From positions 761 to 64,760 of the forward strand of contig CAVSWO010000001.1 of assembly GCA_963731735.1 (NCBI GenBank): a stretch of DNA of 64,000 bases. Reading direction: 5' to 3'. The translations under genes and the position numbers were made by a program. Source of the stretch: Candidatus Kerfeldbacteria bacterium. GTDB taxonomy: Bacteria; Patescibacteriota; Patescibacteriia; SBBC01; CAIJZX01. A model generated the notes under the pieces. It was not told where the DNA came from. It searched no databases and was given only the letters and a program-made list of their open reading frames with translations. Positions 5,740 through 47,994 of this stretch are shown in pieces; positions within the stretch are counted from its first letter, which is position 1; each line of letters opens with the position of its first letter.

Positions 5740-5743
5740 GACT

Positions 5744-5772
5744 TTGACGGTCCGACCACGACCCGATACACT
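5744..5772 (+). promoter_or_regulatory. putative sigma70 promoter of murA (TTGACG-17-TACACT)
   Basis: -35 TTGACG at 5744-5749, a 17-nt spacer, and -10 TACACT at 5767-5772. The same hexamer pair recurs at 16181-16209. Confidence 0.4.
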
Positions 5773-5813
5773 ACGGTGCAGGCGCGCATATAGCCGCAGT
5801 CTACCATGTCTGT

Positions 5814-7133
5814 ATGAGTCACACCAAGCTATCGGAATACGTGATTGAAGGCGGCCATCCGTTATCCGGAACGATTGCGGTTCGAGGCGCGAAAAACGCG
5901 GCCTCGAAAATTTTATTGGCCACCATGCTCTCCGATCAGCCGTCGGTGATTACCCAGGTGCCGCTGTCTGGGGAAACTGATATCGCCGCTGAATTGATTG
6001 AGCAAATCGGCGGACGAGTTGACCGTCACGAACATACCTGGACGGTTTGCACGTCCCGGGTCCAGGCCAATAACTTACCGCCCCAAACCCGAAAAAATCG
6101 TTTACCAATCTTGACCCTCGGCCCGCTCCTCCAGCGGACCGGTCAAGCCGAAATCCCGATGGTCGGCGGAGATGCAATTGGACCGCGGCCCGTTAATTTT
6201 CACATTGATGCGCTGCGAGCCATGGGGGCGACGGTCCGGTTGGAGCAAGACCGATTGCGGGCCGAGACTCGCGGACTGCGCGGCGCCACGATTCGACTGC
6301 CATACCCAAGCGTCGGGGCGACCGAATCGATCGCGTTAACGGCGGTCTTGGCCGAAGGGCGGACGGTGATTGAGAATGCGGCGGTTGAACCCGAAGTTCA
6401 AGATTTATTGCAGATGTTGCAGATGATGGGCGCCATGATTGAATTACGTCCCAATCGCCGGGTGGTGATTGACGGTGTTCGACGCCTGGATGGGGCTCAG
6501 TATCGGGTGATGCCGGATCGGATCGAAGCGGCTTCGTTTGCCTGCCTGGCGCTGGCGACGCAGGGAGACTTGGTGGTTGAACACGCGCGGCAAGCCGATT
6601 TGTTCACATTTTTAACAACCATTCGACGCTTGCATGGGCGCTATGAAATCGACGACCAAGGAATTCGTTTTTTCGCGCCCGAACCCTTACACGGCGTGAT
6701 TGTTGAAACCGATACGCATCCGGGTTTTATGACTGACTGGCAACAACCGCTGGTCACCGTTTTAACCCAGGCCCAGGGGGAATCGATCATGCACGAAACG
6801 GTGTATGAAGATCGTTTTGGGTATACCAACGTGTTGAATCGAATGGGTGCCCGGATCGAAGTTTCGGATGCCTGCCTCGGGACCCTGCCGTGTCGGTTTG
6901 CCGGCCACGGGCACCAACACAGCGCGCGGATTCTCGGCCCGACAAAGCTCCATGGCACGACAATCGCCATCCCGGACATTCGGGCCGGCATGGCCCAGGT
7001 GATCGCCGCCCTGACGGCCGAAGGCACGTCGCGATTGACTGGCCTGGAACATTTGGATCGGGGCTACGAACAACTTGACCAACGACTCCAGGCAGTTGGC
7101 GCTCGTCTCCAGCGGACAGAACGTGTATACTAG
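5814..7133 (+). CDS. murA: UDP-N-acetylglucosamine 1-carboxyvinyltransferase
   Basis: N-terminus GHPLSGTIAVRGAKNAASKILLATML and active-site loop GGDAIGPRPVNFHIDAL match MurA. The catalytic position carries Asp, not Cys. Confidence 0.95.
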   Translation: MSHTKLSEYVIEGGHPLSGTIAVRGAKNAASKILLATMLSDQPSVITQVPLSGETDIAAELIEQIGGRVDRHEHTWTVCTSRVQANNLPPQTRKNRLPILTLGPLLQRTGQAEIPMVGGDAIGPRPVNFHIDALRAMGATVRLEQDRLRAETRGLRGATIRLPYPSVGATESIALTAVLAEGRTVIENAAVEPEVQDLLQMLQMMGAMIELRPNRRVVIDGVRRLDGAQYRVMPDRIEAASFACLALATQGDLVVEHARQADLFTFLTTIRRLHGRYEIDDQGIRFFAPEPLHGVIVETDTHPGFMTDWQQPLVTVLTQAQGESIMHETVYEDRFGYTNVLNRMGARIEVSDACLGTLPCRFAGHGHQHSARILGPTKLHGTTIAIPDIRAGMAQVIAALTAEGTSRLTGLEHLDRGYEQLDQRLQAVGARLQRTERVY

Positions 7134-7137
7134 CCCT

Positions 7138-8334
7138 ATGGCCCTCCGACCGCGATTCCTGACGTTGATGCTTGGTCTGTTTTTCCTATCCGCCGGATTT
7201 GGGCTGGGAGTCTGGTCCAGCTCGCCCACCGCCCCGCCGGCGGCCGCCGAGTTGGCAAATACCGTGGCCAATATTCGCACCCGCGATCAATCCGGCTGGA
7301 CCACCTTTCAACGCGTCTGGAATGAAGTTCACGCCACCTACTTGCGGCGTTCGGTCAAGGACCAGACGCTTGTTGATGGCGCAACCAAGGGGCTGGTTGA
7401 AGCCCTGGGCGACCCCTATTCGGTCTATTTGACCAAAAGCGAATCCCAGGACTTTCAGGCTGAAATTGAAGGTTCATTTGAGGGAGTTGGGATGGAAATC
7501 AGCGTGAAAAATAATGTCTTAACGATTATTGCGCCCTTACCTGGCAGTCCGGCCGAGCAAGCCGGAGTCAAACCCGGGGATGTGATCACCGCCATTGGCG
7601 ATCAAGACGCCTCGGCCATGTCACTCGATCAGGCGGTCCAAAAAATCCGCGGTCAGGCCGGTACACAAGTCACCATCACGGTTGCTCGCGGTGACCAAAG
7701 CCTGGATCTGACCATGACCCGCGACACTATCAAGGTCGATTCTGTCCAGAGCCATGTCGAAACGGTGGGTGACACCAAACTCGGCTATATCCAAATCAGT
7801 CAATTCTCTTCCGACACCGCAAAATTATTCCAGCAGGCGGTGCAAAATTTACTGGGCCAATCGGTCAGCGGGTTGATCCTGGATTTACGGAACGATCCGG
7901 GCGGACTGCTTGACCAAGCGGTCGCGGTCGGCAAAAAATTTATCCCGTCCGGACCAATCGTCAAAGAAGTCGATCGCAACGGAAAAATTACCACCCTGGA
8001 TGCCGATAATACGGCTACGCTGACCAAGATTCCGACCGTGGTGTTGATCAACGGTGGATCGGCCTCGGCGGCTGAAATATTGGCGGGCGCGCTGCAGGAC
8101 TACGGCCAGGCCACCATCATCGGTGAAACCTCATTTGGGAAAGGGACGGTCCAAGATTTTCAGACCCTGCCGGACGGATCGAGCCTAAAACTCACGGTGG
8201 CCGAATGGCAAACGCCGCATGGTCGTTCGATCCAAGATAACGGGATCACGCCGGATATTGCAGTAAAAAATTCAGACGATCCCCAAGCGACGGACGCGCA
8301 GCTCGACCGCGCAAAACAGGAACTCACCCAATGA
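7138..8334 (+). CDS. ctpA: carboxyl-terminal processing peptidase (S41 family)
   Basis: N-terminal anchor, PDZ domain (GVKPGDVITAIGD...VTITVARG), and S41 catalytic motifs LILDLRNDPGGLL and INGGSASAAEILAGAL...GETSFGKGTVQ. The start was chosen at the ATG at 7138 just after the murA stop. Confidence 0.9.
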   Translation: MALRPRFLTLMLGLFFLSAGFGLGVWSSSPTAPPAAAELANTVANIRTRDQSGWTTFQRVWNEVHATYLRRSVKDQTLVDGATKGLVEALGDPYSVYLTKSESQDFQAEIEGSFEGVGMEISVKNNVLTIIAPLPGSPAEQAGVKPGDVITAIGDQDASAMSLDQAVQKIRGQAGTQVTITVARGDQSLDLTMTRDTIKVDSVQSHVETVGDTKLGYIQISQFSSDTAKLFQQAVQNLLGQSVSGLILDLRNDPGGLLDQAVAVGKKFIPSGPIVKEVDRNGKITTLDADNTATLTKIPTVVLINGGSASAAEILAGALQDYGQATIIGETSFGKGTVQDFQTLPDGSSLKLTVAEWQTPHGRSIQDNGITPDIAVKNSDDPQATDAQLDRAKQELTQ

Positions 8335-27317: not shown

Positions 27318-28952
27318 ATGCGTCGATCACGACTCTGGCTGACATTCGGGTTGATCATCGGCCTCGCCTTGCTGGCTGGGTACATCGACTGGCCGAACGC
27401 GCCGACCACACCCTTTCCTCCCTTCAACCGGAATTTTCCGATTCGGCTTGGTTTAGATATCCAGGGCGGCAGCAGCTTGGTTTACCAGGCGGACATGTCG
27501 AAGATCCCGAGCGCTGATCGCGACTCAGCGCTGCAAGGTGTTCGTGACGTAATTGAACGTCGCGTGAATGCCTTCGGAGTTTCCGAACCAGTCGTGCAAA
27601 CTAATCACGGCGGGGGAGAGTACCGGGTGCTGGTTGAACTGGCCGGAATTAAAGATATCAACCAGGCGATTAAACAGATCGGGGAAACACCGTTACTGGA
27701 ATTTCGCATCGCCGCCGGCCTGCCAGATGCTGAAGCGAAACAGAAAGCCGAAGATTTACTCAAACAAATTCAGCAGGGCGCGGATTTTGGGGAAATCGCC
27801 AAAGCCAATTCTGATGACCCGGGATCGGCCGTCAAGGGTGGGGATTTGGGCTTTGCGGATCCAAGTTCCTATGTCACGGAGTTTGGTGATGCCTTGAAGA
27901 AACTCAAAGACGGCGAGATTACGTCGGCTCCGGTAAAGTCTCAATTCGGCTACCACATCATCAAACGAATCGCTACGAAAACAGTCGATCAGGACGGAAA
28001 ACCGGTTGAACAAATCGAGGCCGCGCACATTCTGGTGGCCACCAGTGATTCGGCCCAGCAAACGGGAAATTTTGTTCCAACCAAGCTGTCAGGCCAGCAG
28101 CTTAAACGAGCGGATGTGGTCTTCGACCCGACCGCCGGGACGCCCCAAGTCCAGCTGACCTTTAATAGTGAGGGTGCGAAATTGTTTGAACAACTGACCA
28201 CCGACCATGTCGGCGAGGTGTTGGGTATCTATTTAGACGGACAACCGATAAGTTTACCGCGCGTCAACGGTCCGATCACCGGCGGCACCGCCATCATTAC
28301 CGGTGACTTTTCCTTGCAGGAAGCCAAAGATTTGGCACGCCGGCTGAATGCCGGAGCCCTGCCGGTGCCGATTACCTTGGTCAGCCAGCAGAACATCGGT
28401 GCCAGCTTGGGTCAGGCGGCGGTGGAGCGCAGCTTTGCCGCTGGATTGATTGGCTTAGCCTTGGTGGCAGTGTTCATGATTCTGTACTACCGCCTGCCCG
28501 GCGTGGTGGCCGTGCTGGCACTCGGGGTCTACACCTTGCTGGTGCTGGCGATATTTAAAGTCTGGCCCGTAACGCTGACGCTGGCCGGGATCGCGGGATT
28601 TATCTTGTCGATCGGTATGGCGGTGGATGCCAACATTCTGGTCTTTGAACGCACCAAGGAAGAATTGCGCGCCGGCCGACCGCTGCTGTCCGCGATTGAC
28701 GAAGGCTTCCGCCGTGCCTGGCCGTCCATCCGTGATTCGAATATTTCCAGTTTAATTACCTCGGCCATTTTGATTTGGTTCGGCAGTAGTTTAATTAAAG
28801 GTTTCGCTGTGACGCTTTCGATCGGAATTTTGCTCTCTATGTTCTCGGCTTTGACGGTCACGCGGACCTTTATGTTGCTGATCGCCCGAAAAGGGATTGC
28901 CCGCCGACCATGGTTATTTGGGGTTGGAAAATCGGAGGTGACAGATGTATAA
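27318..28952 (+). CDS. secD: protein translocase subunit SecD carrying an inserted parvulin-type peptidyl-prolyl isomerase domain
   Basis: Canonical SecD TM1, P1-base (EYRVLVELAGIKDINQAIKQIGETPLLEFR; ITGGTAIITGDFSLQEAKDLARRLNAGALPVPI) and the C-terminal 5-TM bundle are present. Residues about 136-222 (FGEIAKANSDDPGSAVKGGDLGFADPSSYVTEFGDALKKLKDGEITSAPVKSQFGYHIIKRI) form a PpiC/parvulin rotamase domain where the P1 head normally sits. Confidence 0.9.
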   Translation: MRRSRLWLTFGLIIGLALLAGYIDWPNAPTTPFPPFNRNFPIRLGLDIQGGSSLVYQADMSKIPSADRDSALQGVRDVIERRVNAFGVSEPVVQTNHGGGEYRVLVELAGIKDINQAIKQIGETPLLEFRIAAGLPDAEAKQKAEDLLKQIQQGADFGEIAKANSDDPGSAVKGGDLGFADPSSYVTEFGDALKKLKDGEITSAPVKSQFGYHIIKRIATKTVDQDGKPVEQIEAAHILVATSDSAQQTGNFVPTKLSGQQLKRADVVFDPTAGTPQVQLTFNSEGAKLFEQLTTDHVGEVLGIYLDGQPISLPRVNGPITGGTAIITGDFSLQEAKDLARRLNAGALPVPITLVSQQNIGASLGQAAVERSFAAGLIGLALVAVFMILYYRLPGVVAVLALGVYTLLVLAIFKVWPVTLTLAGIAGFILSIGMAVDANILVFERTKEELRAGRPLLSAIDEGFRRAWPSIRDSNISSLITSAILIWFGSSLIKGFAVTLSIGILLSMFSALTVTRTFMLLIARKGIARRPWLFGVGKSEVTDV

Positions 28953-29929: not shown

Positions 29930-29954
29930 TTAGGCGTTTTTGAATAACTATCGC

Positions 29955-31094
29955 ATGGAAGATCAACTGCAAGATACAGGTGGGTCTATTCTTGATCGGG
30001 TGTTGCATAGCCAACAAACGGTCGCTTTAGAGCACTTTGACCCGCAAGATATCGTCCAAGATGTGCTGAAGCAGGTTTCTGAAAAAGAAGCCGATGTTTT
30101 ACGTCGGCGATTTGGCTTGGGGCAAATGGATCAAGAAACGTTGGAAAAAATCGGCAATCATTATCATGTGACGCGTGAACGGGTCCGCCAAATCGAGCGT
30201 TGGGCGATCAAGCACCTCCAGAAGTCATCGACGGTTAAAGCTCGTCTGCACCAGCTGGAAACGTTATTGCAGCAACTGATGGAAGAGCACGGTGGGTTGA
30301 TGCTTGAAGATGAACTCTTTGCCGCCCTTCATATGCACACGTCGCCGACTGACCGTTCACGCGCCGCGATTACGTTTTTGCTCGAAGAGCTGCTGGCGGA
30401 AAAAGTCGAACGGATTGACCAAGCACCCTATAAGCCCTATTGGAAGCTTCGGTTTGAAACGCCGAGTCATTTGCCAATTGTCTTGGCCGAAGCCGAAGCG
30501 GTGATCAGCCAAGAAGGACGGCCGATTCCGCATCAGCGTTTAATTGAAAAACTCTTGGCTCGTCCGGCCATTCAATCTTTGCAACCGGCCATGAATGACG
30601 TCATGATTGATACGGCGCTAAGCGTGGCCACCAGTATCGAACGCAACCCATTTGGCGAGTACGGTTTACGAAATTGGGGGAGTATCGTCCCGAAGCGAAT
30701 GCATGATAAAATATTGTTGGTCATGCGCAAGCACGGCAAACCGATGCACTTTCAAGACATTGCCAAAAAAATCAATGAACTTGGCTTTGACCAGCGCCAG
30801 GCCTACCCGCCGACCGTGCATAATGAACTGATACTGAATGATGAATACGTCTTGATTGGTCGCGGTATCTACGCCTTACGCGAATGGGGATACAAACCGG
30901 GCGTGGTGGCGGATGTCCTCGAAGCAATTTTACGCGAGGCCGGCGAACCAATGGCCCGCGAAGATCTGGTGGCCAAAGTCTTAGAGCAACGGGTGGTCAA
31001 GCGGAACACCATTCATTTAGCGCTGACAAATAAACGGCGCTTTGCGCGGACGTCCGACGGCCGCTACACGTTGGCGACGGCCCCGACCGTTTAA
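29955..31094 (+). CDS. sigma-70 region-4 HTH / HARE-HTH domain protein, putative transcription-associated factor
   Basis: The N-terminus EKEADVLRRRFGLGQMDQETLEKIGNHYHVTRERVRQIERWAIKHL is a textbook sigma70 region 4. The C-terminus GKPMHFQDIAKKINELG...YVLIGRGIYALREWG resembles a HARE-HTH winged helix. The ORF could also start at TTG 29940. Confidence 0.6.
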   Translation: MEDQLQDTGGSILDRVLHSQQTVALEHFDPQDIVQDVLKQVSEKEADVLRRRFGLGQMDQETLEKIGNHYHVTRERVRQIERWAIKHLQKSSTVKARLHQLETLLQQLMEEHGGLMLEDELFAALHMHTSPTDRSRAAITFLLEELLAEKVERIDQAPYKPYWKLRFETPSHLPIVLAEAEAVISQEGRPIPHQRLIEKLLARPAIQSLQPAMNDVMIDTALSVATSIERNPFGEYGLRNWGSIVPKRMHDKILLVMRKHGKPMHFQDIAKKINELGFDQRQAYPPTVHNELILNDEYVLIGRGIYALREWGYKPGVVADVLEAILREAGEPMAREDLVAKVLEQRVVKRNTIHLALTNKRRFARTSDGRYTLATAPTV

Positions 31095-31116: not shown

Positions 31117-32508
31117 ATGCCGGGAGGCTTTCAACTTACCATTTCAATTCCTGAATTTTCCAGTCCGCTGGCGGCGCTGTGGTGGCTTTTTACGCATGGC
31201 GGTTTTGTGGCGGTGGTGATCGCGATTGGCTATGGAATTTGGTGGTTGTATTTAGACTATATTCAAAGCCGCTACCTGGCTCGACAACAGTACGTCATGT
31301 TGGCGGTCGATGTGCCAAAGTTGAATGAGCAGACCCCGAAAGCGGTCGAGCATATTTTTAGTCATTTTCACGGCATCCACAAACAACCGAATAAACGCGA
31401 GTTGTATGTTGAGGGTTTTGTCCAGCCAACTATTACCGTCGAACTGGTTTCGATCGGCGGCTATATTCAGTTTGTGATTCGAACGCCGATTGAACAGCGA
31501 GATCTGGTTGAATCGGCCATTTACGCGCAATACCCGGATGCCGAAATTTCGGAAGTCGAGGACTATGCCTATCGCTACGATCCAAAGTTTCCGAATGACG
31601 AATTCGATTTGTGGGCGTCCGAATTGCAGATGACCAATAAAGATCCGTACCCGATCAAGACCTATCCGCTCTGGGAACACAGTCTGACCCAAACTTTTCT
31701 CGATCCGATGGCCTCGATGTTAGAAATGATGGGCCGGCTGCAGGATGGTGAAGAAATTTGGTTTCAGTGGATTCTCAAGCCAACCCTCGACAGTCGCTGG
31801 CGTGATAAGGGGATGGACATCATCAATAAATTGATTGGTGCAAAAGTCAAAATCAAAAAAGGCGCACTCGACTCGCTGGTTGAAGCGCCGGGGAATGTTT
31901 TGTTAGGCACTTATAATACGTTGACCCGTACCTTGTTTGAACCGGTCGAAGGCAATGCGCGCAAGGATGACAATGGACTGCCGAGTTTGATGCAGCATCT
32001 TCCTCCGCATGTCAAAAATCAAGTCGAGGCAATCGGTATCAAAATCAGTAAATTAGCCTTTGAAACCAAGGCGCGCGTCGTGTACGTTGGGCGCCAGGAT
32101 GTATTTAATAAATCCCGGGTCAGTTCGATTTTCGGTTCCCTCAAACAGTTTGCAACGCTGGATATGAACGGGTTTAAGCCGGATAAGGTCATGAAAACGC
32201 AACGCTCGTACTTTCGCGTTCCGCAGCGGGTAGCGGCCCTGAAGCGCAAACTGCTGCTGGGCTATCGGACCCGCAGCAACTGGACCGGTCGTACCACCTT
32301 TATGCTGAATACCGAGGAATTGGCCTCGCTCTGGCATTTCCCGGTCGTAACGGTCAAAGCGCCACAAGTCAAAAAGACTGACGCCAAGCGCGGCGAACCG
32401 CCGGTCACACTGCCGACGGGTGAAGTAGCGGAGCGGGTCGAAAGACCGGTGGCGGCTCCGGCTGGACCACGCGGTGGCGCTCCCACCAATTTACCGACGC
32501 GTCCATGA
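31117..32508 (+). CDS. membrane-anchored hypothetical protein (2 N-terminal TM), translationally coupled partner of the downstream ATPase
   Basis: Start chosen at the ATG at 31117 (MPGGFQL...). TM helices LAALWWLFTHGGFVAVVIAIGYGIWWLYL, then a roughly 400-aa soluble domain with no known motif. ATGA overlap with the next gene. Confidence 0.55.
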   Translation: MPGGFQLTISIPEFSSPLAALWWLFTHGGFVAVVIAIGYGIWWLYLDYIQSRYLARQQYVMLAVDVPKLNEQTPKAVEHIFSHFHGIHKQPNKRELYVEGFVQPTITVELVSIGGYIQFVIRTPIEQRDLVESAIYAQYPDAEISEVEDYAYRYDPKFPNDEFDLWASELQMTNKDPYPIKTYPLWEHSLTQTFLDPMASMLEMMGRLQDGEEIWFQWILKPTLDSRWRDKGMDIINKLIGAKVKIKKGALDSLVEAPGNVLLGTYNTLTRTLFEPVEGNARKDDNGLPSLMQHLPPHVKNQVEAIGIKISKLAFETKARVVYVGRQDVFNKSRVSSIFGSLKQFATLDMNGFKPDKVMKTQRSYFRVPQRVAALKRKLLLGYRTRSNWTGRTTFMLNTEELASLWHFPVVTVKAPQVKKTDAKRGEPPVTLPTGEVAERVERPVAAPAGPRGGAPTNLPTRP

Positions 32509-34187
32509 GCGAACAACCGCAAGACGGCGTGACTTTATTTGCGACCACCAATTACCGTGGTCAGCAGCAACCGTTCGGGATCAAGACCGATGACCGACGT
32601 CGGCACATGTATGTGATCGGCAAGACCGGCATGGGCAAATCGACCATGCTTGAAAACATGATTATTCAGGATATCCGCGACGGTCAGGGGATTTGCGTGG
32701 TTGATCCGCACGGCGACTTAGTCGAAAAAATTGTCAACTTCATTCCCTCACATCGGGTCAATGACGTAATTTATTTTAACCCGGCTGACGCCGATTATCC
32801 GATTGCATTTAATATTTTGGAAGCCATTGATCCGCGCCAACGTCACCTGGTGGCTTCCGGGCTGATCGCGGTCTTCAAGAAACTCTGGGTTGATTCCTGG
32901 GGTCCGCGGCTCGAATATATTTTACGGAATACGATTTTGGCGTTGATTGAATACCCGGGTTCAACACTGTTGGGGATCAATCGGATGTTTGTCGACAAAG
33001 ACTACCGGAATAAGGTGGTCAACCATATTTCCGATCCGATCGTCAAATCTTTTTGGCAAACGGAGTTTAACGCGTATGCGCAGCAATTTCGAACCGAAGC
33101 CGTTTCGCCAATTCAAAATAAAATCGGACAATTTTTGTCGAGTTCAATCATTCGCAATATTGTCGGTCAGCCAAAATCAACGATTGACATGCGAGATATT
33201 ATGGACAGCGGAAAAATCCTGCTCCTGAATTTGGCCAAAGGCCGGATCGGTGAAGACAACGCCGCCCTGCTCGGTGCGATGATGATAACCAAGTTGCAGG
33301 TGGCGGCTATGAGTCGGATTGATATTCCTGAGCCGGAACGCCGAGATTTTATACTCTACGTTGACGAGTTTCAAAATTTTGCAACTGAATCATTTGCCAA
33401 TATTTTATCCGAAGCCAGAAAATACCGGCTGGACTTAGTGATCGCGCATCAATACATTGAGCAATTGGACGAGGCAGTGCGAGCGGCCGTGTTTGGCAAC
33501 GTCGGAACCATGATTTGTTTTCGTGTCGGGGCCGCTGATGCGGAATTTCTGGCCAAAGAATTTTTTCCGGTTTTTACCGAAACCGATCTCGTTAACCTAA
33601 CCAAGTTTGATATTTACTTAAAGTTAATGATCGACGGGGTGGCTTCGGAACCATTTTCGGCTACCGGTTTACCGCCAGTGCAAAATCCGGACAACCTTGA
33701 GGAAACGATTATTCGTGTTTCCCGTGAACGTTATGCCAAACAGCGCGATGTGGTCGAAGAAAAAATTTCACGCTGGTCCGGCGCGATGTTGGAAGCCATG
33801 GCGTCAGACGCAAAGTCGAGCGGCGACCGCCGCAATCGGGGACCCGCGCGATCGGATGGCCCGGCTCGATCAGAATCTCGCGCCCCGACTCGAAATCCCG
33901 ACAATCCGCCTGAAGCCAAGCCGAAAATCGATGTCCAAAGCCGGCAACCGGTGCCGACGGAAGGAATTCCGGCTGAAATATCTTTAGCGGACGCCTTCAA
34001 GTCACAACCGAACGACACACGATCTCCGGCCGAGCAGTCGCATCGAAATCGCCGACCAGAGCGACCGCGGCGGCGCCATGATCAACCGGCCCGACCGTCA
34101 AAAGCTGCCCCATCGGCGTCGACCGGACCGGCCGAAAATCCGGCGCCGCAGTCGATTCAGCCAGGCCAGGTCGTCCAAATCAAGTAA
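32505..34187 (+). CDS. TraG/TraD/VirD4-family (type IV coupling protein-like) P-loop ATPase with no N-terminal membrane anchor and a disordered basic C-terminal tail
   Basis: Walker A VIGKTGMGKST, Walker B ILYVDEFQNF, then ARKYRLDLVIAHQYIEQL...VFGNVGTMICFRVGAADAEF, which matches the conserved C-terminal block of TrwB/VirD4 coupling proteins. The last ~130 aa are low-complexity with GPARSDGPARSESRAP repeats. Confidence 0.75.
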   Translation: MSEQPQDGVTLFATTNYRGQQQPFGIKTDDRRRHMYVIGKTGMGKSTMLENMIIQDIRDGQGICVVDPHGDLVEKIVNFIPSHRVNDVIYFNPADADYPIAFNILEAIDPRQRHLVASGLIAVFKKLWVDSWGPRLEYILRNTILALIEYPGSTLLGINRMFVDKDYRNKVVNHISDPIVKSFWQTEFNAYAQQFRTEAVSPIQNKIGQFLSSSIIRNIVGQPKSTIDMRDIMDSGKILLLNLAKGRIGEDNAALLGAMMITKLQVAAMSRIDIPEPERRDFILYVDEFQNFATESFANILSEARKYRLDLVIAHQYIEQLDEAVRAAVFGNVGTMICFRVGAADAEFLAKEFFPVFTETDLVNLTKFDIYLKLMIDGVASEPFSATGLPPVQNPDNLEETIIRVSRERYAKQRDVVEEKISRWSGAMLEAMASDAKSSGDRRNRGPARSDGPARSESRAPTRNPDNPPEAKPKIDVQSRQPVPTEGIPAEISLADAFKSQPNDTRSPAEQSHRNRRPERPRRRHDQPARPSKAAPSASTGPAENPAPQSIQPGQVVQIK

Positions 34188-39461: not shown

Positions 39462-41279
39462 TTGATGCACGCCCACGATTTGCGCCGGAAGTTTCTCGAG
39501 TATTTCGCGAAGCACGGACATACCCAGCTCCCATCCTCGTCTTTACTGCCGGACAATGATCCGTCGGTTCTGCTGACCACGGCCGGTATGCAGCAATTTA
39601 AACCGTATTTTCTGGGCGAAAAGGATCCGGTCAAAGACTTCAAATCAAAACGGGTGACGACCGTCCAAAAATCATTTCGAACCTCGGATATTACCGAGGT
39701 CGGGGATGAATCACACCTGACCTTTTTTGAAATGCTCGGGAATTTCAGCTTCGGAGACTACGGCAAAAAGGAGGCGATTGCTTGGGCCTGGGAGTTTCTA
39801 ACCAAAACACTCCACCTGCCAAAAGACCGATTATGGGCAACGGTTTTTGCCGGTGATGACGATGTACCAGGCGATACCGAGGCGACGCGTGAATGGGAAA
39901 AATATTTACCCAAAGAAAAAATTTTTCCGCTCGGACGAAGCGATAATTTTTGGGGACCGGCCGGGGAGACTGGTCCCTGCGGCCCCAGCAGCGAGATTCA
40001 TTACCAACTTGACCCGAAGCGGGGCGGGCAGCCGGGTGATGATTCCGATAATTTTATTGAGATCTGGAATCTGGTCTTTACCGAGTATGCGCAATCCAAG
40101 GACCGCCGGTTAAAAAAACTGCCGACCTTGAACATTGATACCGGGATGGGTCTGGAACGCTTGGCGATGGTGCTACAAAAGAAAGATTCGGTTTTTGCCA
40201 CCGATGCGTTTACTTCTTTGCTACGAGTGACTGAAAAACTGCCAGCCTTTGGGCAATCGGGCGACCAAGTAGCTGATCAGCGCCGGAGCAGGATCGTCGC
40301 CGACCACATCAAAGGCGCCTGTTTCCTGTTGGCCGATGGCGTCGGGTTTTCAAATAAAGATCAGGGGTATATTTTGCGCCGGATCGTCCGACGAGCGGCC
40401 GATCAATTCTTGCTGGCCGAAATAGATTTTCAACCGTTGGTGGATGAAGTCTTTGGACTTTACGGCTCGGCCTACCCTGAATTATTGAAAAATGAACACC
40501 TGGTCCGGGGCGCATTGACCCATGAATTGGAACAGTATCAAAAAATCTTACAAATCGACGTGCATGCACTGGTCGATAAAATCCGGAAGCTCAAGCCGGC
40601 CGAAACAGACAAGCCGCAGCCTTCAACGACGGATTTAACGCCGGATGAAGCGTTTACTTTGTACGCTACCCACGGCATCTCACTCGATCGTTTAGTGCGA
40701 CTCGGTTTTACCTTCAATCAGGCATCAGTCGAAAAGAAAGTTGCCAAACACCAAGCGCTGTCACGGGCCGGGGCCGAGAAGAAATTTGGCGGCCACGGGC
40801 TGAATGACCCAGATTTGGAAAACAAATTTACCAAAGATCAGATTTGGATTATGACCCGCTTACATACGGCTACCCACCTGCTGCATGCGGCCCTGCGTAC
40901 GATACTCGGACCGGGCGTGAAACAAAGCGGTTCGGATATTACTCCCGATCGGTTGCGATTTGATTTTACCTTTGAACGTAAACTGACCGATCAAGAAAAA
41001 CAGGATATTGAAAACCTCGTCAACGAAAAAATCAAGGCGGATTTGCCGGTTTCGCACGCCAGCCTGCCGTACCAGCAGGCGATTGATCAAGGCGCGCTGG
41101 CGTTCTTCAAAGAAAAATACGGCGAACAAGTAACCGTATATTCGATCGGAGATTTTTCGAAAGAACTGTGCGGCGGACCGCATGTCGAGCACACGAATCA
41201 AATCGGCAATTTCAAGATTACCGCAGAGCAGAGTGTTGGAGCCGGGTTACGGCGGATCAAAGCCAGTCTGGGCGCCTAA
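39462..41279 (+). CDS. alaS: alanine--tRNA ligase, short form lacking the C-Ala/DHHA1 domain
   Basis: Class II core FLEYFAKHGH...FEMLGNFSFGDY. Editing-domain zinc motif (TATHLLHAAL; CGGPHV). Only 605 aa. Probable ATG at 39465. Confidence 0.9.
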   Translation: MMHAHDLRRKFLEYFAKHGHTQLPSSSLLPDNDPSVLLTTAGMQQFKPYFLGEKDPVKDFKSKRVTTVQKSFRTSDITEVGDESHLTFFEMLGNFSFGDYGKKEAIAWAWEFLTKTLHLPKDRLWATVFAGDDDVPGDTEATREWEKYLPKEKIFPLGRSDNFWGPAGETGPCGPSSEIHYQLDPKRGGQPGDDSDNFIEIWNLVFTEYAQSKDRRLKKLPTLNIDTGMGLERLAMVLQKKDSVFATDAFTSLLRVTEKLPAFGQSGDQVADQRRSRIVADHIKGACFLLADGVGFSNKDQGYILRRIVRRAADQFLLAEIDFQPLVDEVFGLYGSAYPELLKNEHLVRGALTHELEQYQKILQIDVHALVDKIRKLKPAETDKPQPSTTDLTPDEAFTLYATHGISLDRLVRLGFTFNQASVEKKVAKHQALSRAGAEKKFGGHGLNDPDLENKFTKDQIWIMTRLHTATHLLHAALRTILGPGVKQSGSDITPDRLRFDFTFERKLTDQEKQDIENLVNEKIKADLPVSHASLPYQQAIDQGALAFFKEKYGEQVTVYSIGDFSKELCGGPHVEHTNQIGNFKITAEQSVGAGLRRIKASLGA

Positions 41280-41350
41280 AAATATCGGGTGGAAAAGCCC
41301 GAGATAAACGAGGTTTGCCAAAATTCGAATTTCATGAGTATAGTACGTAT

Positions 41351-42223
41351 ATGGAAGTTGCGCTGAATATCGCTGGACTTAAAAAATATTTCGGAAAAAC
41401 CAAAGCGGTTGATGACGTGAGCCTGACCGTCCAGAGCGGTGAAATGTTTGGTTTTTTAGGACCAAATGGAGCCGGGAAAACCACCACCATTCGCACGATC
41501 ATGGACTTTATCCGGCCGACAGCCGGGCAGATTCAGGTGTTCGGCCAAGACGCCCAACAGAATGCGGTGGCGGTGAAACATCAGATCGGCTATCTACCAG
41601 GGAACCCGCATGCCTTTGAAAAATGGACCGGGAATGAACATATTGAATGGGTCCGGCGCACGAATGGCGGAGTTGATTCGGCCCAGGAATTAGTTGAGAA
41701 ATTTGATTTTGACCCCAAGCGCCCGGCCCATCATTTGTCTTCCGGAAATCGGCAGAAACTGGGCTTAATCCTGGCGCTGATGACCAATCCGAAGTTAGTC
41801 ATTCTGGATGAACCCACCAACGCCCTTGATCCGTTAGTCCAAAATTCGCTTTACGCCTTACTGCGGGACCGGGTCAAGCAGGGGACCACGGTTTTTATGT
41901 CATCCCACAATTTAGCTGAAGTGGAGCGGATTTGCGACCGAGTGGCAATTATCCGACAAGGCAAGTTGGTGGCGGTTGAACGGATTGCTGATCTCAAAGA
42001 CAAACACATTCATCGAATCCAAGTCACCTTTGACCGACCGACGAAACCCGATACCCTGCGGCAGGATGGAATCACCATTGAAGCTGCCGCCGACCGGGCC
42101 TTGACCTTGAAAGTTCAGGGTGAACTGCAGCCACTGTTGGCCAAGCTGGCTACCTTACCGGTCAAAACGCTGGATGTGAAAAGCGCCGACCTGGAAGATA
42201 TATTTCTCACTTATTATCGCTAG
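41351..42223 (+). CDS. ABC transporter ATP-binding protein
   Basis: Walker A GPNGAGKTT, signature LSSGNRQKL, Walker B ILDEPT. Start chosen at the ATG at 41351 (MEVALNIAG...). Confidence 0.9.
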   Translation: MEVALNIAGLKKYFGKTKAVDDVSLTVQSGEMFGFLGPNGAGKTTTIRTIMDFIRPTAGQIQVFGQDAQQNAVAVKHQIGYLPGNPHAFEKWTGNEHIEWVRRTNGGVDSAQELVEKFDFDPKRPAHHLSSGNRQKLGLILALMTNPKLVILDEPTNALDPLVQNSLYALLRDRVKQGTTVFMSSHNLAEVERICDRVAIIRQGKLVAVERIADLKDKHIHRIQVTFDRPTKPDTLRQDGITIEAAADRALTLKVQGELQPLLAKLATLPVKTLDVKSADLEDIFLTYYR

Positions 42224-42224
42224 T

Positions 42225-43028
42225 ATGGGCTTTCTGATTTGGCGAACCATCCGCGACCGCCGCAATACCATCATTACTTATACGCTCCTAACCGTCCTCT
42301 TAATGTGGATGTATGTGGCGCTCTTCCCGTCACTCCAGAAGCAGGCGGCGAATTTTGACCAGTTGTTTAAAACCTACCCCAAAGGATTGATGGCGGCCTT
42401 CGGCATTGAGACGCTAAGCTTTGACCATTTTGATTCATACCTCTCAACCGAAACGTTTAATTTTACCTGGCCGTTGCTAGTGGTCTTAATTTCAATTTCC
42501 TTTGCTTCGAGTGGGATTGCCGGGGATATCGAACGCGGGACCAGCGAAATCTTACTGGCCCGCCCGTTATCTCGAGCCAAGATATTTTTTGGCAGATATT
42601 TTGCGACCTTAGCGGTGTTAATTGTCTTTACCGGACTTTCTGTCTATACTCCGGTCATGTTTGCTTCGTTTAGCTCGATAACCTACGATCTCAGCCAATT
42701 TCACACGTTTTTGGTTTTGTCTCTGCTCTATGCTTGGGCTGTTATGAGTGTCTCCTTTTGCATCTCCACGCTGGTATCTGAAAAGGGGAAAGCGTTGGGC
42801 CTGGCGGGCGGCTTATTTGTCCTGATGTATATTTTTAATTTGTTTGGGCAGTTGTCGGATAAAGTCTCCTGGATGACCAAGATTTCCTACTTTAAATATT
42901 TTGATCCGATTGAGGGTTTGGTCCATCACCATCTGGCCGCCGGGCCGCTGCTAGTTTTCGGATTGAGTATTCTCCTCGCCACCGGTTTGGGTGTCTTCTG
43001 GTTTCAACGGCGGGATATTGCGACCTAG
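42225..43028 (+). CDS. ABC-2 type exporter permease
   Basis: 267 aa, 6 TM. Confidence 0.8.
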   Translation: MGFLIWRTIRDRRNTIITYTLLTVLLMWMYVALFPSLQKQAANFDQLFKTYPKGLMAAFGIETLSFDHFDSYLSTETFNFTWPLLVVLISISFASSGIAGDIERGTSEILLARPLSRAKIFFGRYFATLAVLIVFTGLSVYTPVMFASFSSITYDLSQFHTFLVLSLLYAWAVMSVSFCISTLVSEKGKALGLAGGLFVLMYIFNLFGQLSDKVSWMTKISYFKYFDPIEGLVHHHLAAGPLLVFGLSILLATGLGVFWFQRRDIAT

Positions 43029-43031
43029 CCC

Positions 43032-43886
43032 ATGGACTACGCTATTCGAGTTGAACATCTGGCCAAGTACTATGGCGACGTGCACGCCCTGGAGGATGTG
43101 GTGCTGGATGTCCACCCGGGGAAAATTACCGGTTTACTCGGCCCCAACGGCGCCGGTAAATCCACCCTGATTAAATCATTAGTCGGCGCACTGCAACCGA
43201 ATCAAGGCAGCATCCAAGTCCTGGGGCTTGACCCGATTCATCACCGTTGGCAACTTCGCCCGAACCTGGGGTATATGCCGCAGGAACCGGCGCTGTATGA
43301 TGATTTGTCGGCCCTGGAAAACGTGGCTTTTTATGCCCGATTGCACCGTGACAAACAGCCGCAGGAACTGGCGGAAAAATTATTGACGGAATTGGATTTA
43401 GGTCAGCGGTTGCGAAGTCCAATTTTTACGCTATCCGGCGGCATGCAGAAACGCGTATCATTGGCCGCTGCTCTTGTCCATAATCCGAAATTATTGATTT
43501 TAGATGAACCGACGGCCGCCTTGGATCCGCTGCTGAAGCGCAGTCTGTGGCAACGTTTTCGTCAGTTGGCCGACGAAGGTAAAACTTTGATCATTAGCAC
43601 GCATTTGATGGATGAAGCCATGTTGTGTGACCGGGTAGTGCTGATGCAACATGGAAATGTGGTAGCTCATGATACACCGCGGAATTTGATAGAAACCGGC
43701 AGCTTGACCTTGCGGTATCATCAAAACGGGCAAGATGAAACAGAAACCATGCCGGCTGATGGGGTAGCCCTGGCCAAGGCCCTGCAACGGCACGGCCTGT
43801 CACCATCAATCGATCAGGTTAAGGTTGAGGAGGAGAATCTTGAAGACGTGATGGTGCGGATGCTGGGACGGGAGGACCAGCCATGA
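43032..43886 (+). CDS. ABC transporter ATP-binding protein (second copy)
   Basis: GPNGAGKST, LSGGMQKR, ILDEPT. Confidence 0.9.
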   Translation: MDYAIRVEHLAKYYGDVHALEDVVLDVHPGKITGLLGPNGAGKSTLIKSLVGALQPNQGSIQVLGLDPIHHRWQLRPNLGYMPQEPALYDDLSALENVAFYARLHRDKQPQELAEKLLTELDLGQRLRSPIFTLSGGMQKRVSLAAALVHNPKLLILDEPTAALDPLLKRSLWQRFRQLADEGKTLIISTHLMDEAMLCDRVVLMQHGNVVAHDTPRNLIETGSLTLRYHQNGQDETETMPADGVALAKALQRHGLSPSIDQVKVEEENLEDVMVRMLGREDQP

Positions 43887-44620
43887 ATATACTGATCGTG
43901 GCCCGCCGGGTACTCCAACAACTCCGCCATGATCGTCGATTTCTGGCCTTTATGATTTTGGTACCGCTGGTGCTGGCCTATTTCTTGAAACTATTTTTTG
44001 ACACGCTGCCGCCGAACGTATCGCGGGAAGCTTTCGTAGTGCCTTTTACCGCCTTTATCGTTTACTTCCTGACGTTTTTACTATCAGCGCTCCTCTTGGT
44101 TCAGGAACGCACCAGCGGAACATTAAACCGGATGCTAATCAACGGACTCAAAAAAACTGATATCATTCTGGGGTACGTTACCGGGTATATCGGACTGGCC
44201 ATCATCCAGGCGGCGTTTGTTTTGGCCGAGGTATTATGGCTGTTTGATCTCGGGTACGATGTCACGGTGATTATCGCCTTTGGCGGAGCCCTGTTCCTGC
44301 TGGCGATTGTCTCGGTCTTACTCGGGATTTTCATCTCAACCTTCGCGCGCCGGGAAGCTCAAGTTATCCCATTTATTCCGTTGTTGGTTGTGTTACCAGC
44401 CTTTTTATCGGGGTTGCTGGCTGATCCGGCTCTGCTTCCGCGGTGGGCGGAAATACTCGGAAAAGTATTTCCAATTCGCTATGGGATCGAAGCCGCCCAA
44501 GCCGCCATCGCCCATGGAGGAATAGATACGACTAGTTTGTGGCAAAGTTACGGAGCCTTACTGGCGTTTGCCGTCGCCCTAACCATCGTCGGTTCATTCA
44601 CTTTCCGTGAACGGGAGTAA
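43883..44620 (+). CDS. ABC-2 type exporter permease (second copy)
   Basis: 245 aa, 6 TM. ATGA-coupled. Confidence 0.8.
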   Translation: MNILIVARRVLQQLRHDRRFLAFMILVPLVLAYFLKLFFDTLPPNVSREAFVVPFTAFIVYFLTFLLSALLLVQERTSGTLNRMLINGLKKTDIILGYVTGYIGLAIIQAAFVLAEVLWLFDLGYDVTVIIAFGGALFLLAIVSVLLGIFISTFARREAQVIPFIPLLVVLPAFLSGLLADPALLPRWAEILGKVFPIRYGIEAAQAAIAHGGIDTTSLWQSYGALLAFAVALTIVGSFTFRERE

Positions 44621-44794: not shown

Positions 44795-44800
44795 AAAAAA

Positions 44801-44830
44801 CCTACCCGAAGGTAGGTTATTTCTTTTTTC
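44801..44830 (+). terminator. rho-independent terminator
   Basis: cctacc-cgaa-ggtagg then ttatttctttttt. Confidence 0.6.
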
Positions 44831-45362
44831 GCGGGCGGGCCGGAAAGAAGAAATGAATTTCAATCCGAGTGGGGCGAATGCCCGGTTGACGACCAGCATG
44901 CACTAGCAGGGCCGTGACCATTGAGGCCGGCAGCGACGACTGCGGATGCGGCTGCCTCGTTCGTCGCTTTGAGGTACGAATACCGAAATCGACGACTTTA
45001 TCGATTTTGGCCGGCTGCCGATGACCTTTGCGACGTCCGTGCGGATTCGATCTTCTTGGATGGTAATCGATTGGCAATCGGGCCACCGCGCGGCGGTAAA
45101 CGATGAACTGATGGAAGTTACCGGATTTTCCGGTAGCGCGGGCCCGGGCATAGGTGCGGATGAGTTTGGCACTTCGTAGCGAAACGTAGATGGCGTACCC
45201 GGTTTTCTGTCCGAAGCGTTGACGCAGCAAAGAGGTAATACCGATCAACCTAAACCGCTCCGCCCGGGGTGGTCCCTGCTGCAACAAGAACCGATATCCT
45301 TGGTACAGATGGGTTGCCAAATACAGCTTACCGTGACGAATTTCAAACACGCGTTTTGCCAT
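44817..45362 (-). CDS. arginine-rich hypothetical protein (coding status uncertain)
   Basis: Long minus-strand ORF. The N-terminal ~90 aa look protein-like (MAKRVFEIRHGKLYLATHLYQGYRFLLQQ...) but the C-terminal half is R/P/K low-complexity, typical of spurious GC-rich frames. No motif recognised. Confidence 0.25.
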   Translation of the reverse strand: MAKRVFEIRHGKLYLATHLYQGYRFLLQQGPPRAERFRLIGITSLLRQRFGQKTGYAIYVSLRSAKLIRTYARARATGKSGNFHQFIVYRRAVARLPIDYHPRRSNPHGRRKGHRQPAKIDKVVDFGIRTSKRRTRQPHPQSSLPASMVTALLVHAGRQPGIRPTRIEIHFFFPARPRKKK

Positions 45363-45676
45363 AGCAACCTCACGGCTGGAGTGGGGAGTGATTTTGAAAG
45401 AGCCGCTGAATGTAGCAACTGGGAGACCATTTGTCAAGCCGACTTGAGGTTTTTCTGCCAAAGATTTAGACTCGCCGTATGCAATTAACGGTCGACTTCT
45501 CACACCTGTTTACCCAGCAACCGGGTGAATCCAACGTCTGGATCGCGAATTCGTTATTGGTGTTAGTTATCGCCGTCGTAGTCGTCGGCTGGTTCGTTGC
45601 CAAACAGGACTAGTTGACAGAACAGCCGAAAGGGTCTAGCGTTGCAGCGCGATCTTTGCTCATCAAGGAGGGAACA

Positions 45677-46099
45677 ATGCATAAGCTCGGCTGGGTTTTT
45701 GTTCTGATCGGTCTGTTCGGAATCGGGAACCGCCTGCAGGCCGCGACGGTCGATCTGCCAAACTATTACCGGTACCAGGTTGGTCCGAATATTTGGCGGA
45801 CGGATGTGCCGTTGTTTACGCTGCGTGCTTGGGGTGATACCGTCGCCTTCCGGTTACGGTCGGACGCGTTTGCGCGTTTTGTGGCTGAGTCAAGTTTCCC
45901 CGATACGATGCATTTCGATTTACAGACGGAATTCCTGCGCTATGATCAGGCGCCGACTGGTCACCTCTGGCGCGGTCCGTATCTAACCACCGATGGCGAT
46001 CTCGACCAAATCCGGATGCGAGCCTACCGATCCCAACCGCGACTGGAACAGATCCAGCTGCGCCTGCCATTCAAGCCGTCCCACCCACGCCAACCGTAA
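45677..46099 (+). CDS. secreted hypothetical protein
   Basis: AAGGAGGG 5 nt upstream of the ATG at 45677. Signal peptide MHKLGWVFVLIGLFGIGNRLQAATV. Confidence 0.6.
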   Translation: MHKLGWVFVLIGLFGIGNRLQAATVDLPNYYRYQVGPNIWRTDVPLFTLRAWGDTVAFRLRSDAFARFVAESSFPDTMHFDLQTEFLRYDQAPTGHLWRGPYLTTDGDLDQIRMRAYRSQPRLEQIQLRLPFKPSHPRQP

Positions 46100-46174
46100 T
46101 CGGTTGGCTTTTATATTGCATCCGCCCGGGGTAGGAAATTTTGGCCGGATAGTATATACTCAAACCGGAGGTAT

Positions 46175-47023
46175 ATGTATATGGCAACCGCTAAAAAGAA
46201 AACTCGAACAGCAAAAATTACCAATTCGTCGTCCAAGCCGGCAGAAAAAGCTCTACCCGCCTTGGAGCCAAAATTACAGAATCTTCGGGTCTGGAATTGG
46301 TCGATGGCCTTTTTGCATGCCATTTCTGGCAGTCTAATGCTTTGGCTTAGCACGGACTTTCGACTGCCGATCACCACCGCTTTCGTGCAATATAGTCCGA
46401 GCAGTCGAATGCTTGAACCGAATTTGCAAAACTTTGCGGAAGCCCGAATCGGTCCGTTGGTGGCCGGTTTTCTGTTCTTATCAGCGCTGGCGCATTTCCT
46501 GGTGGCCGGACCGTTTTATAAATGGTACACCGAGCATATCGTCAAAGGCATTAACCCGGCTCGCTGGATTGAATATACATTTTCATCATCCTTGATGATT
46601 GTCGTGATCGCCATGCTGGTTGGCGTCTATGATATCGGCACCCTGATCGCTATCTTCGGACTGAACGCGATGATGATTCTCTTCGGGTGGGTGATGGAGC
46701 TCCATAATCAAACCACTCAACGGACTGATTGGACGAGTTTCGTGTTTGGGTCAGTGGCGGGAATAATCCCTTGGATCGTGATTGGCATCTATTTATTTGG
46801 CGCTGGAAACGGCAATGGCGAAGTCCCAACGTTCGTGTACTGGATTTACGGTTCAATATTTGTCTTCTTCAACTGCTTCGCCTTGAATATGGTGCTCCAA
46901 TACAAACGGGTCGGCCGCTGGCAGGACTATTTGTTTGGAGAGAAAACATATCTCATCTTGAGTTTGGTGGCTAAATCACTGCTGGCCTGGCAAGTTTTTG
47001 CCGGTACGCTTCGGCCGGTCTAG
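46175..47023 (+). CDS. heliorhodopsin (inverted-topology microbial rhodopsin)
   Basis: RWIEYTFSSSLMIVVIAMLVG, FGWVMELHNQ, GIIPWIVIGIYLFG and YLILSLVAKSLLAWQVFAGTLRP align closely with heliorhodopsin 48C12, including the TM7 Schiff-base lysine (K267, AAA at 46973-46975). GGAGG spacing favours the second ATG at 46181. Confidence 0.88.
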   Translation: MYMATAKKKTRTAKITNSSSKPAEKALPALEPKLQNLRVWNWSMAFLHAISGSLMLWLSTDFRLPITTAFVQYSPSSRMLEPNLQNFAEARIGPLVAGFLFLSALAHFLVAGPFYKWYTEHIVKGINPARWIEYTFSSSLMIVVIAMLVGVYDIGTLIAIFGLNAMMILFGWVMELHNQTTQRTDWTSFVFGSVAGIIPWIVIGIYLFGAGNGNGEVPTFVYWIYGSIFVFFNCFALNMVLQYKRVGRWQDYLFGEKTYLILSLVAKSLLAWQVFAGTLRPV

Positions 47024-47044
47024 TCCGTCAATTGGATTCATACC

Positions 47045-47073
47045 TTGACAGCCGAAGCATCCTTGGGTATAGT
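47045..47073 (+). promoter_or_regulatory. consensus-like sigma70 promoter (TTGACA-17-TATAGT) of the infA-rpoA-rplQ operon
   Basis: TTGACA at 47045-47050 and TATAGT at 47068-47073. About 200 nt of leader follow, with hairpins gcctatcg-gcat-cgataggc (47131-47150) and cgcgga-acatcg-tccgcg. Confidence 0.55.
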
Positions 47074-47185
47074 TTTTTAGTACCTCACGACTTTGTCCCG
47101 TATTTGACGCTAAGACTAGCGAAATTTCGGGCCTATCGGCATCGATAGGCAGGGCAAGTTCGGGGTGCAGATCCTCGATTTTTCG

Positions 47186-47467
47186 ATGTATAAACGACAA
47201 CAGACCAATCGACAAAAAAACGCGGAACATCGTCCGCGGGGTCCGCGAGACCGTACCGATAAAGGGTTTTTAACCTTGACCGGGATGGTGATCGAGGCTC
47301 TGCCAGGCACTATGTTTCGGGTCGAGCTGGAAAATGGGCATACCATTTTGGCTCACCTGGCCGGAAAAATGCGAATGCATCGCATGAAAGTCCTGCCGGG
47401 CGATAAGGTGTCGGTTGAAATGACACCGTACGACCTGACCAAAGGTCGAATCGTCTACCGTCTGTGA
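47186..47467 (+). CDS. infA: translation initiation factor IF-1 (start ambiguous)
   Basis: [55 protein letters not shown] is IF-1. The conserved domain starts near nt 47260. Candidate starts are ATG 47186, TTG 47276 and ATG 47285. Confidence 0.8.
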
Positions 47468-47479
47468 TTACGACTCTCT

Positions 47480-47596
47480 ATGAAAGTTCGATCATCCGTC
47501 AAAGTTATGTGTAAGAAATGCCGCGTTATTCGACGTGGCAAACGGGTATTGGTTGTTTGTCCAGCCAATCCGAAACATAAGCAACGACAAGGATAA
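47480..47596 (+). CDS. rpmJ: 50S ribosomal protein L36
   Basis: [38 protein letters not shown] (38 aa, zinc ribbon). Not in the supplied ORF track. Confidence 0.9.
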
Positions 47597-47598
47597 CT

Positions 47599-47994
47599 AT
47601 GGCTGCGGTTCGAATTGCTGGAATTACTCTCCCGAACAACAAACGCGTGTTTGTCGCGCTGCAATATATTTACGGCGTGGGACCGCGAGTTGCGCGGGTG
47701 GTATTAAGCGAAGCGAAGATTGAGGACAACCCGAAAGTTGATTCACTGACTGAAGCGCAAGTTATTAAACTTCGTGAACTGGTAGAAAAAAATCATCGGG
47801 TTGAAGGCGATCTGAAACGAGAAATTCTTTTGAATATTAAACGGCTAAAGGAAATTGGGAGCTATCGCGGTGCGCGCCATAGCAAAAATTTACCGACCCG
47901 TGGACAACGAACCAAAACGAATTCACGGACGGTCCGTGGGAACGTCCGGCGTACCATGGGTTCTGGCCGCAAGCCGTCAGCGGAAAAGACCTAA
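47599..47994 (+). CDS. rpsM: 30S ribosomal protein S13
   Basis: MAAVRIAGITLPNNKRVFVALQYIYGVGPRVA... Confidence 0.92.
   Translation: MAAVRIAGITLPNNKRVFVALQYIYGVGPRVARVVLSEAKIEDNPKVDSLTEAQVIKLRELVEKNHRVEGDLKREILLNIKRLKEIGSYRGARHSKNLPTRGQRTKTNSRTVRGNVRRTMGSGRKPSAEKT

Follow-up and report, generated by a model that had tools for sequence, protein, structure and literature searches.

The best-characterized heliorhodopsins (HeRs) with which the gene described here can be compared are TaHeR, from Thermoplasmatales archaeon SG8-52-1 (PDB 6IS6, 7CLJ, 7U55), and 48C12, the founding member of the family (PDB 6SU3, 6UH3). A sensory role has been published for HeRs (PMC8612252), as have their restriction to monoderm organisms and their use of exogenous retinal (PMC8612252, PMC9296517), and some are known to regulate partner proteins (PMC11109279). 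HeRs of the Candidate Phyla Radiation (CPR; also called Patescibacteria) that carry the motif S-L-V-A-K have likewise been published (PMC9166423). The present analysis concerns a HeR gene at 46181..47023 on the forward strand of a 64-kb window, i.e., the whole stretch of 64,000 nucleotides from contig CAVSWO010000001.1 (assembly GCA_963731735.1) that was analysed. From profile matches and alignment, the product was identified as a canonical bacterial HeR and the gene as intact.

Family assignment and start of the gene

The open reading frame (ORF) was listed at 46175..47023 on the forward strand (282 aa), and both the frame and the peptide blocks quoted from it in the first-pass annotation were present exactly as claimed. 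Its translation matched Pfam PF18761 (Heliorhodopsin) over the entire profile (positions 1-242/242; 341.4 bits, cutoff 26.7, E = 3.4e-102), and no second family was detected by Pfam at E ≤ 0.01, including PF01036 (Bac_rhodopsin). The match to the NCBIfam equivalog NF038020, 'heliorhodopsin HeR', was equally complete (positions 1-244/244; 350.3 bits against a cutoff of 100), and therefore the NCBI pipeline would name this protein automatically. Among PDB chains, the search returned TaHeR (6IS6, E = 1e-79), 48C12 (6SU3, E = 1e-60) and Cv06 (9VFC, E = 1e-46); no type-1 rhodopsin appeared up to E ≤ 10, and the next match after the HeRs was attributable to chance (E = 2). The assignment made from the bare sequence, which was also to heliorhodopsin, was thereby borne out. 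Homologues were abundant, with 7,442 at E ≤ 1e-20 among 8,000 candidates scored, and the closest in the databases (60-76% identity) were annotated as 'heliorhodopsin HeR' from the Patescibacteria group, Kerfeldbacteria or Berkelbacteria.

The coding sequence probably begins at 46181 (280 aa plus stop) rather than at 46175, since a Shine-Dalgarno-like GGAGG, read from the sequence at 46168..46172 on the forward strand, lies 8 nt before the ATG at 46181 and only 2 nt before that at 46175, and since the database copy P0001 (NCBI/ENA; 100% identical) is itself 280 aa long. Two residue numberings consequently apply, 282 (start at 46175) and 280 (start at 46181), such that K267 in the former is K265 in the latter.

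Chromophore site and fenestration

Pairwise mapping showed 54% identity to TaHeR, across the seven-transmembrane (7-TM) core and with one 4-residue indel, and 47% identity to 48C12. Residues H48, H107, E133, S263 and K267 in the 282 numbering (H46, H105, E131, S261 and K265 in the 280 numbering) aligned with H23, H80, E107, S237 and K241 of 48C12 and with H23, H82, E108, S234 and K238 of TaHeR, and all were invariant in an alignment of 18 homologues (A1). The codon for the Schiff-base counterion in TM3, GAA (E133/E131), was located at 46571..46573 on the forward strand. The TM7 motif S-L-V-A-K was encoded at 46961..46975 (S263-K267), and its S, A and K positions were invariant in A1; this is the commonest TM7 motif of CPR HeRs (PMC9166423). 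The retinal-binding lysine predicted by alignment corresponded to codon AAA at 46973-46975. The lysine that had been put forward as the Schiff-base residue, K267, was thus found to be intact and in register with its counterparts in both reference proteins.

The residues that line the lateral fenestration were examined using positions taken from a preprint (bioRxiv 10.1101/2025.11.27.691015). In the 280 numbering, F187, S191, G194, F230, N231 and A234 corresponded to F162, C166, G169, F206, N207 and A210 of 48C12, and the residue set is intact as judged by this alignment. Five of the six were unchanged from 48C12 (F162, G169, F206, N207, A210), while C166 is replaced by serine here; the two proteins differ further by 1-2 residues in extracellular loop 1 (ECL1) and in the TM4-TM5 loop. 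Of the TaHeR fenestration residues, N204 and A207 were retained and Y164 was represented by phenylalanine.

The same preprint proposes that most HeRs recruit a xanthophyll at the fenestration, and requires an aromatic side chain at positions 162 and 206, a small one at 166 and 210, and glycine at 169. A protein acting mainly as a two-chromophore light harvester with an exogenous xanthophyll, and not purely as a sensor, could therefore be envisaged here, as every one of these positions has a suitable residue (F187, F230, S191, A234 and G194). By the preprint's own count, however, about 91% of HeRs possess the motif, which makes it unspecific; the support offered in two of its sections consists of sequence analysis, structural comparison and docking, and a non-pumping HeR would have no energy-transducing output to which an antenna could contribute. 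Light harvesting as the main role was considered distinctly unlikely.

Topology and structural model

A hydropathy scan identified six hydrophobic segments, of which one (residues 129-175) covers two helices. The membrane face that holds the N-terminus, together with the loops alternating onto it, carried 16 lysines and arginines, versus 3 on the opposite face; by the positive-inside rule, the topology is predicted to be N-in and C-out, i.e., inverted as in HeRs, in agreement with the orientation anticipated in the first-pass annotation. A model built with AlphaFold2 from the homologue alignment (predicted local distance difference test, pLDDT, 77; predicted template modelling score 0.73) contained seven TM helices, a short helix (113-121) in the TM2-TM3 loop and an ECL1 beta-hairpin between TM1 and TM2 (residues 61-89, with strands at 61-72 and 77-89). 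When this model was compared with the PDB using Foldseek, ten HeR chains ranked first (E from 6e-20 to 4e-15, TM-score 0.80-0.87, 44-53% identity). The model superposed on TaHeR with a TM-score of 0.87, and on 48C12 with 0.80-0.82.

Type-1 rhodopsins were recovered by Foldseek only as remote fold matches, at E ≥ 1e-4, with TM-scores of at most 0.67 and 11-16% identity. Nothing was found to favour a misassignment as HeR of what would really be a type-1 rhodopsin or a degenerate opsin without function. On the other side stand the lack of any Bac_rhodopsin match in Pfam and of any type-1 chain in the PDB search described above, the motif SxxxK instead of DxxxK, the N-in charge bias, and an intact reading frame in which all hallmark residues are conserved. 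In both sequence and fold searches the protein was closer to HeRs than to type-1 rhodopsins, and a misassignment was given almost no credence.

The canonical HeR described here departs from TaHeR, which has an archaeal host rather than a CPR bacterium, in two respects: the TM5-TM6 loop is extended by four residues (GNGN), and the N-terminal tail is lysine-rich and approximately 25-30 aa longer. This Lys/Arg-rich tail of about 30 aa (46181..46270, forward strand) has 9 K+R before TM1 and is predicted to be cytoplasmic and disordered, with pLDDT below 50 for residues 1-26 of the model. It is poorly conserved, differing in both length and sequence among homologues.

Chromophore supply

Genes for carotenoid or retinal synthesis were sought with Pfam among approximately 58 ORFs of the 64-kb window, comprising those of at least 110 aa after removal of overlapping shadow ORFs, plus two shorter frames; nine ORFs that had no Pfam match were rescanned against NCBIfam. 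The contig from which the window is taken is at least 135 kb long. No carotenoid or retinal family was matched in either scan, and the earlier observation that the window contains no such gene holds for the ORFs scanned. To our knowledge, CPR genomes generally lack a retinal pathway. Because of this, and because none was present in the window, retinal is probably taken up from the environment or from a host through the fenestration. TaHeR is reported to acquire exogenous retinal rapidly by this route, in organisms that lack a pathway (PMC9296517, citing Shihoya 2019). Scavenging of retinal is the standard view for HeRs and CPR rhodopsins. Of the original proposal of a scavenged chromophore, then, the absence of pathway genes stood as an observation for the 64-kb window, and scavenging itself as a reasonable inference.

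Transcription unit

HeR appears, on the signals read from the flanking DNA, to be a single-gene transcription unit, since there is a terminator on its 5' side and a promoter for infA on its 3' side. The former is a terminator-like hairpin, GCCAACCG-TAAT-CGGTTGGC, followed by TTTTATATT (46089..46117, forward strand), which encloses the stop codon of an upstream ORF. The hairpin proper (46089-46108) has an 8-bp GC-rich stem with the stop codon in its loop and a U-tract after it; it folds at -15 kcal/mol (z = -4.2), and none of 200 shuffled sequences folded as well. The latter is a sigma-70-type promoter, TTGACA-17-TATAGT (47045..47073, forward strand), which matches the consensus at 11/12 positions and serves the operon infA-rpmJ-rpsM-rpsK-rpsD-rpoA-rplQ. 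No structure was detected 3' of HeR itself (z = -0.2). A search of Rfam gave no match at gathering score around HeR or in the stretch at 44.8-45.6 kb, and at E ≤ 1 there were only terminator-like, sub-threshold matches; a search for tRNA and tmRNA was negative.

The upstream ORF (45677..46099, forward strand) encodes 140 aa with a signal-peptide-like N-terminus; it is preceded by AGGAGG before the ATG at 45677, its codon usage is coding-like, and it matched no family in Pfam, NCBIfam or PHROG. It had been suggested that this secreted protein could be co-transcribed with HeR, and a two-gene module can be imagined in which the two products interact at the outer face of the membrane. The genes do lie on a common strand, 75-81 bp apart, and the interval between them showed no strong promoter. 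This arrangement must be set against the strong hairpin and U-tract, located at the stop codon that ends the upstream ORF, and against the distribution of that ORF. The 140-aa protein matched only itself among 5.8e9 proteins, and had two weak relatives among 1.84e9 representative proteins, neither of them beside a HeR; no homologue was present at any of 82 related HeR loci. One relative (GCA_964597805.1, 3510-3968; L084) is located downstream of an alanyl-tRNA synthetase (AlaRS) with 72% identity, that is, in the syntenic region, and is followed there by an unrelated secreted protein and not by HeR. The 140-aa ORF is therefore part of the AlaRS neighbourhood of this lineage, and HeR and the ABC-2 genes are what differ between the two genomes. 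Being nearly an orphan, it was rejected as a conserved HeR partner; co-transcription is disfavoured, and a module of the two genes was judged highly improbable.

Downstream of HeR, the gene order is infA-rpmJ-rpsM-rpsK-rpsD-rpoA-rplQ-rplM-rpsI. HeR precedes the infA cluster (47024-47600) in the position usually occupied by secY-adk-map. The infA ORF as listed has an N-terminal extension of 25-30 aa and its start is uncertain; rpmJ (38 aa) is at 47480-47596. The lack of a terminator before the strong infA promoter, the replacement of secY-adk-map and the Lys-rich tail together raise the idea of a functional link between HeR and the machinery of translation and transcription: read-through might lead to joint expression with the infA operon, or the tail might bind ribosomes or nucleic acid. 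Such coupling would amount to a light- and retinal-gated growth switch in a host-dependent CPR cell. The one point in its favour is the adjacency, which was seen at none of the 82 related loci searched, and the idea was thought very improbable indeed.

Search for a partner gene

The single HeR gene was examined for a partner in two ways. Firstly, 59 proteins from the window were compared by tblastn with the 82 related HeR loci (L001-L082); neither ribosomal genes nor homologues of the 140-aa ORF turned up, and there was no synteny, so that in none of the 82 does HeR lie directly 5' of infA-rpmJ-rpsM as it does here. Secondly, neighbours within four genes on either side were clustered for 74 loci (the window and 73 related loci, 7 in which the HeR ORF was not recovered having been left out), and no family was dominant. 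The largest cluster comprised ABC ATPases and occurred at 7/74 loci (the window and 6 related loci). Clusters of cupins, extracytoplasmic function sigma/anti-sigma factors, short-chain dehydrogenases/reductases (SDR) and GlnA were small and lineage-specific. Among the small ORFs immediately 3' of HeR in relatives, homology was confined to three small groups of Saccharibacteria.

Operons that combine HeR with a partner, such as glutamine synthetase, photolyase or the ABC exporter OmrDE, contain the same photoreceptor family, and ten recurrent partner classes have been listed (PMC11109279). In contrast to these, none of the ten (the glutamine and NAD synthetases, photolyase, MerR, TerC, ABC exporter, SDR, alpha/beta hydrolase, DUF2177 and DUF2238) flanks HeR in the window or shares an operon with it. 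No co-oriented partner gene falls within the same predicted unit; terminator-like hairpins are located at 44799-44818 and 46089-46108, and the infA promoter at 47045-47073. The gene belongs to the majority class, 'helR alone', which accounts for about 61% of HeRs (PMC11109279).

The ABC-2 transporters encoded at 41168-44620 require separate consideration. HeR might modulate them in response to light, on the model of OcHeR with the ABC exporter OmrDE; control of an ABC transporter by a HeR is known experimentally (PMC11109279), and ABC ATPases were, as noted, the most frequent neighbour. At one related locus (L017), moreover, HeR directly follows a homologous pair of ABC-2 genes, for an ATPase and a permease. 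That pair (4416-5869, in a Saccharimonas metagenome-assembled genome) is approximately 130 bp from HeR and on the same strand, with 39% and 29% identity to the second pair in the window; it is a possible lead for coupling of this kind. In the window, however, 1.5 kb separates the transporters from HeR, they belong to a different transcription unit, and a glycine-zipper gene, a bidirectional hairpin, a gene on the opposite strand and the 140-aa ORF with its terminator intervene. They are of the separate-subunit ABC-2 type, unlike the fused half-transporters of the exporter OmrDE, and ABC genes are so common that 7/74 may be due to chance. Coupling to these transporters was accordingly regarded as unlikely, and a solitary HeR whose partner, if any, is encoded away from the locus as the better description.

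The three nearest relatives with retrievable context differed in their neighbours. In L082, a hemerythrin gene (7420-7968) lies 33 bp 5' of HeR; in L081, a 3-methyladenine glycosylase (Adenine_glyco, 3119-3874) is downstream; and on the P0004 contig an acetyltransferase, an HhH-GPD glycosylase and DUF2238 are beside HeR, the last two on the same strand as it. These oxidative and DNA-damage-related neighbours are in line with published ideas of a light-damage response.

Two further features separate the ABC-2 genes from the HeR region. The bidirectional, terminator-like hairpin (44799..44818), flanked by A- and T-runs, closes the ABC-2/glycine-zipper unit; it folds at -11.2 kcal/mol (z = -1.6), but 15/200 shuffled sequences were as good, and the fold alone is not significant. 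Next to it, an orphan ORF of 182 aa on the reverse strand (44820-45365) encodes a very basic protein with coding-like codon usage and has a promoter-like TTGACA-17-TACATT at 45437-45409. It matched nothing in Pfam, NCBIfam, PHROG or Rfam, and occupies most of an otherwise unannotated stretch of 0.8 kb.

Host and monoderm context

SecA from the window was 71% identical to that of Kerfeldbacteria. Following a 100%-identical copy from the same 135,050-bp contig in NCBI/ENA, the next 32 matches were at 69-76% identity, the named one among them being Candidatus Kerfeldbacteria, and further matches at approximately 60% were also from Patescibacteria, as were the nearest relatives of HeR. By these affinities, the host belongs to the Patescibacteria (CPR) and is a relative of Kerfeldbacteria, a group that we take to be placed in GTDB class ABY1. 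Published CPR HeRs (Chiriac et al. 2022, PMC9166423; Bulzu et al. 2021, PMC8612252) share with it the phylum-level host type, the SLVAK motif and the lack of a retinal pathway; they are mostly from Saccharimonadia, in contrast to the Kerfeldbacteria-like genome here, and few have been recorded in class ABY1 (PMC9166423).

The Pfam scan of the window identified PilB, PilC, PilM and PilN, a mur/ftsW cell-wall cluster, SecA, two ABC-2 transporters and two loci for glycan synthesis, and among the same ORFs there was no outer-membrane marker (secretin, BamA, Lpt, Lpx or TolC families). We know of no outer membrane in Patescibacteria. Together with this general knowledge, the window ORFs fit a monoderm-type cell and agree with the literature, in which HeRs are confined to monoderms (PMC8612252). 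The monoderm context had been argued previously from pilus genes without a secretin, an unusual SecD and glycan loci, and each of these was recovered. In SecD (27318-28952, forward strand), residues 137-218 form a peptidyl-prolyl isomerase (rotamase) domain of the PPIC type. This domain is inserted between the N-terminal segment of P1 and the P1 head, and a foldase is thus fused into an accessory subunit of the translocon.

Three of the related HeR loci are filed under diderm taxa, L001 and L002 being labelled uncultured Gammaproteobacteria and L029 Burkholderiaceae. Their GC content is 42-51%, the neighbours of HeR are small unknown or low-complexity proteins, and no outer-membrane genes are in view. 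Mis-binning or mislabelling of CPR contigs is the probable explanation, rather than exceptions to the monoderm rule.

Elsewhere in the window, a protein encoded at 29940-31094 (forward strand) joins Sigma70 region 4 (residues 42-95) to HARE-HTH (residues 254-287). Two genes further on is a TrwB/TraG-like coupling ATPase (32505-34187, forward strand), with a 488-aa ORF that matched no family between them.

Proposed function and significance

Considering all of the above, it is quite probable that this canonical CPR HeR uses scavenged retinal, is transcribed as a single gene, and has its partner, if there is one, encoded elsewhere. By analogy with TaHeR and 48C12, the protein would bind all-trans retinal obtained from outside the cell. 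As in the rest of the family, it would pump no ions, and its photocycle would be slow, and through a long-lived photointermediate it would sense light and modulate a partner protein by contacting it directly. The mode of action is likely to resemble that of characterized HeR-partner systems, i.e., light-dependent regulation between proteins.

Several points weigh against this interpretation. Retinal binding, absorption, photocycle and the absence of transport are all carried over from the family, and the regulatory mechanism is extrapolated from other HeRs, no partner having been found at the locus. The absence of retinal genes was established for 64 kb of the genome. A consensus scan identified no convincing sigma-70 promoter in the 70-bp gap 5' of HeR, and there may be partial read-through into HeR from the 140-aa ORF.

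The protein as a HeR, the presence of HeRs in Patescibacteria and the use of scavenged retinal are already known, because an identical protein has been deposited, there are thousands of homologues, the equivalog names the protein as HeR, and CPR HeRs have been published. Only two features are peculiar to this locus: the N-terminal tail, which is Lys-rich and disordered, and the location of the gene immediately 5' of the infA operon. For CPR HeRs, the proposals in the literature deal mainly with how cells respond to oxidative stress caused by light (PMC9166423, PMC8612252), and the window neither adds to these nor contradicts them; nor does the locus hold a partner gene or unusual feature that would ease the question of the physiological output of orphan HeRs. 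Many HeRs from Patescibacteria have been catalogued before, and this gene adds one more; beyond its correct annotation it is of little consequence. It illustrates a known pattern, in which a retinal photoreceptor is retained by a reduced monoderm, probably dependent on a host, that lacks the pathway for the chromophore.

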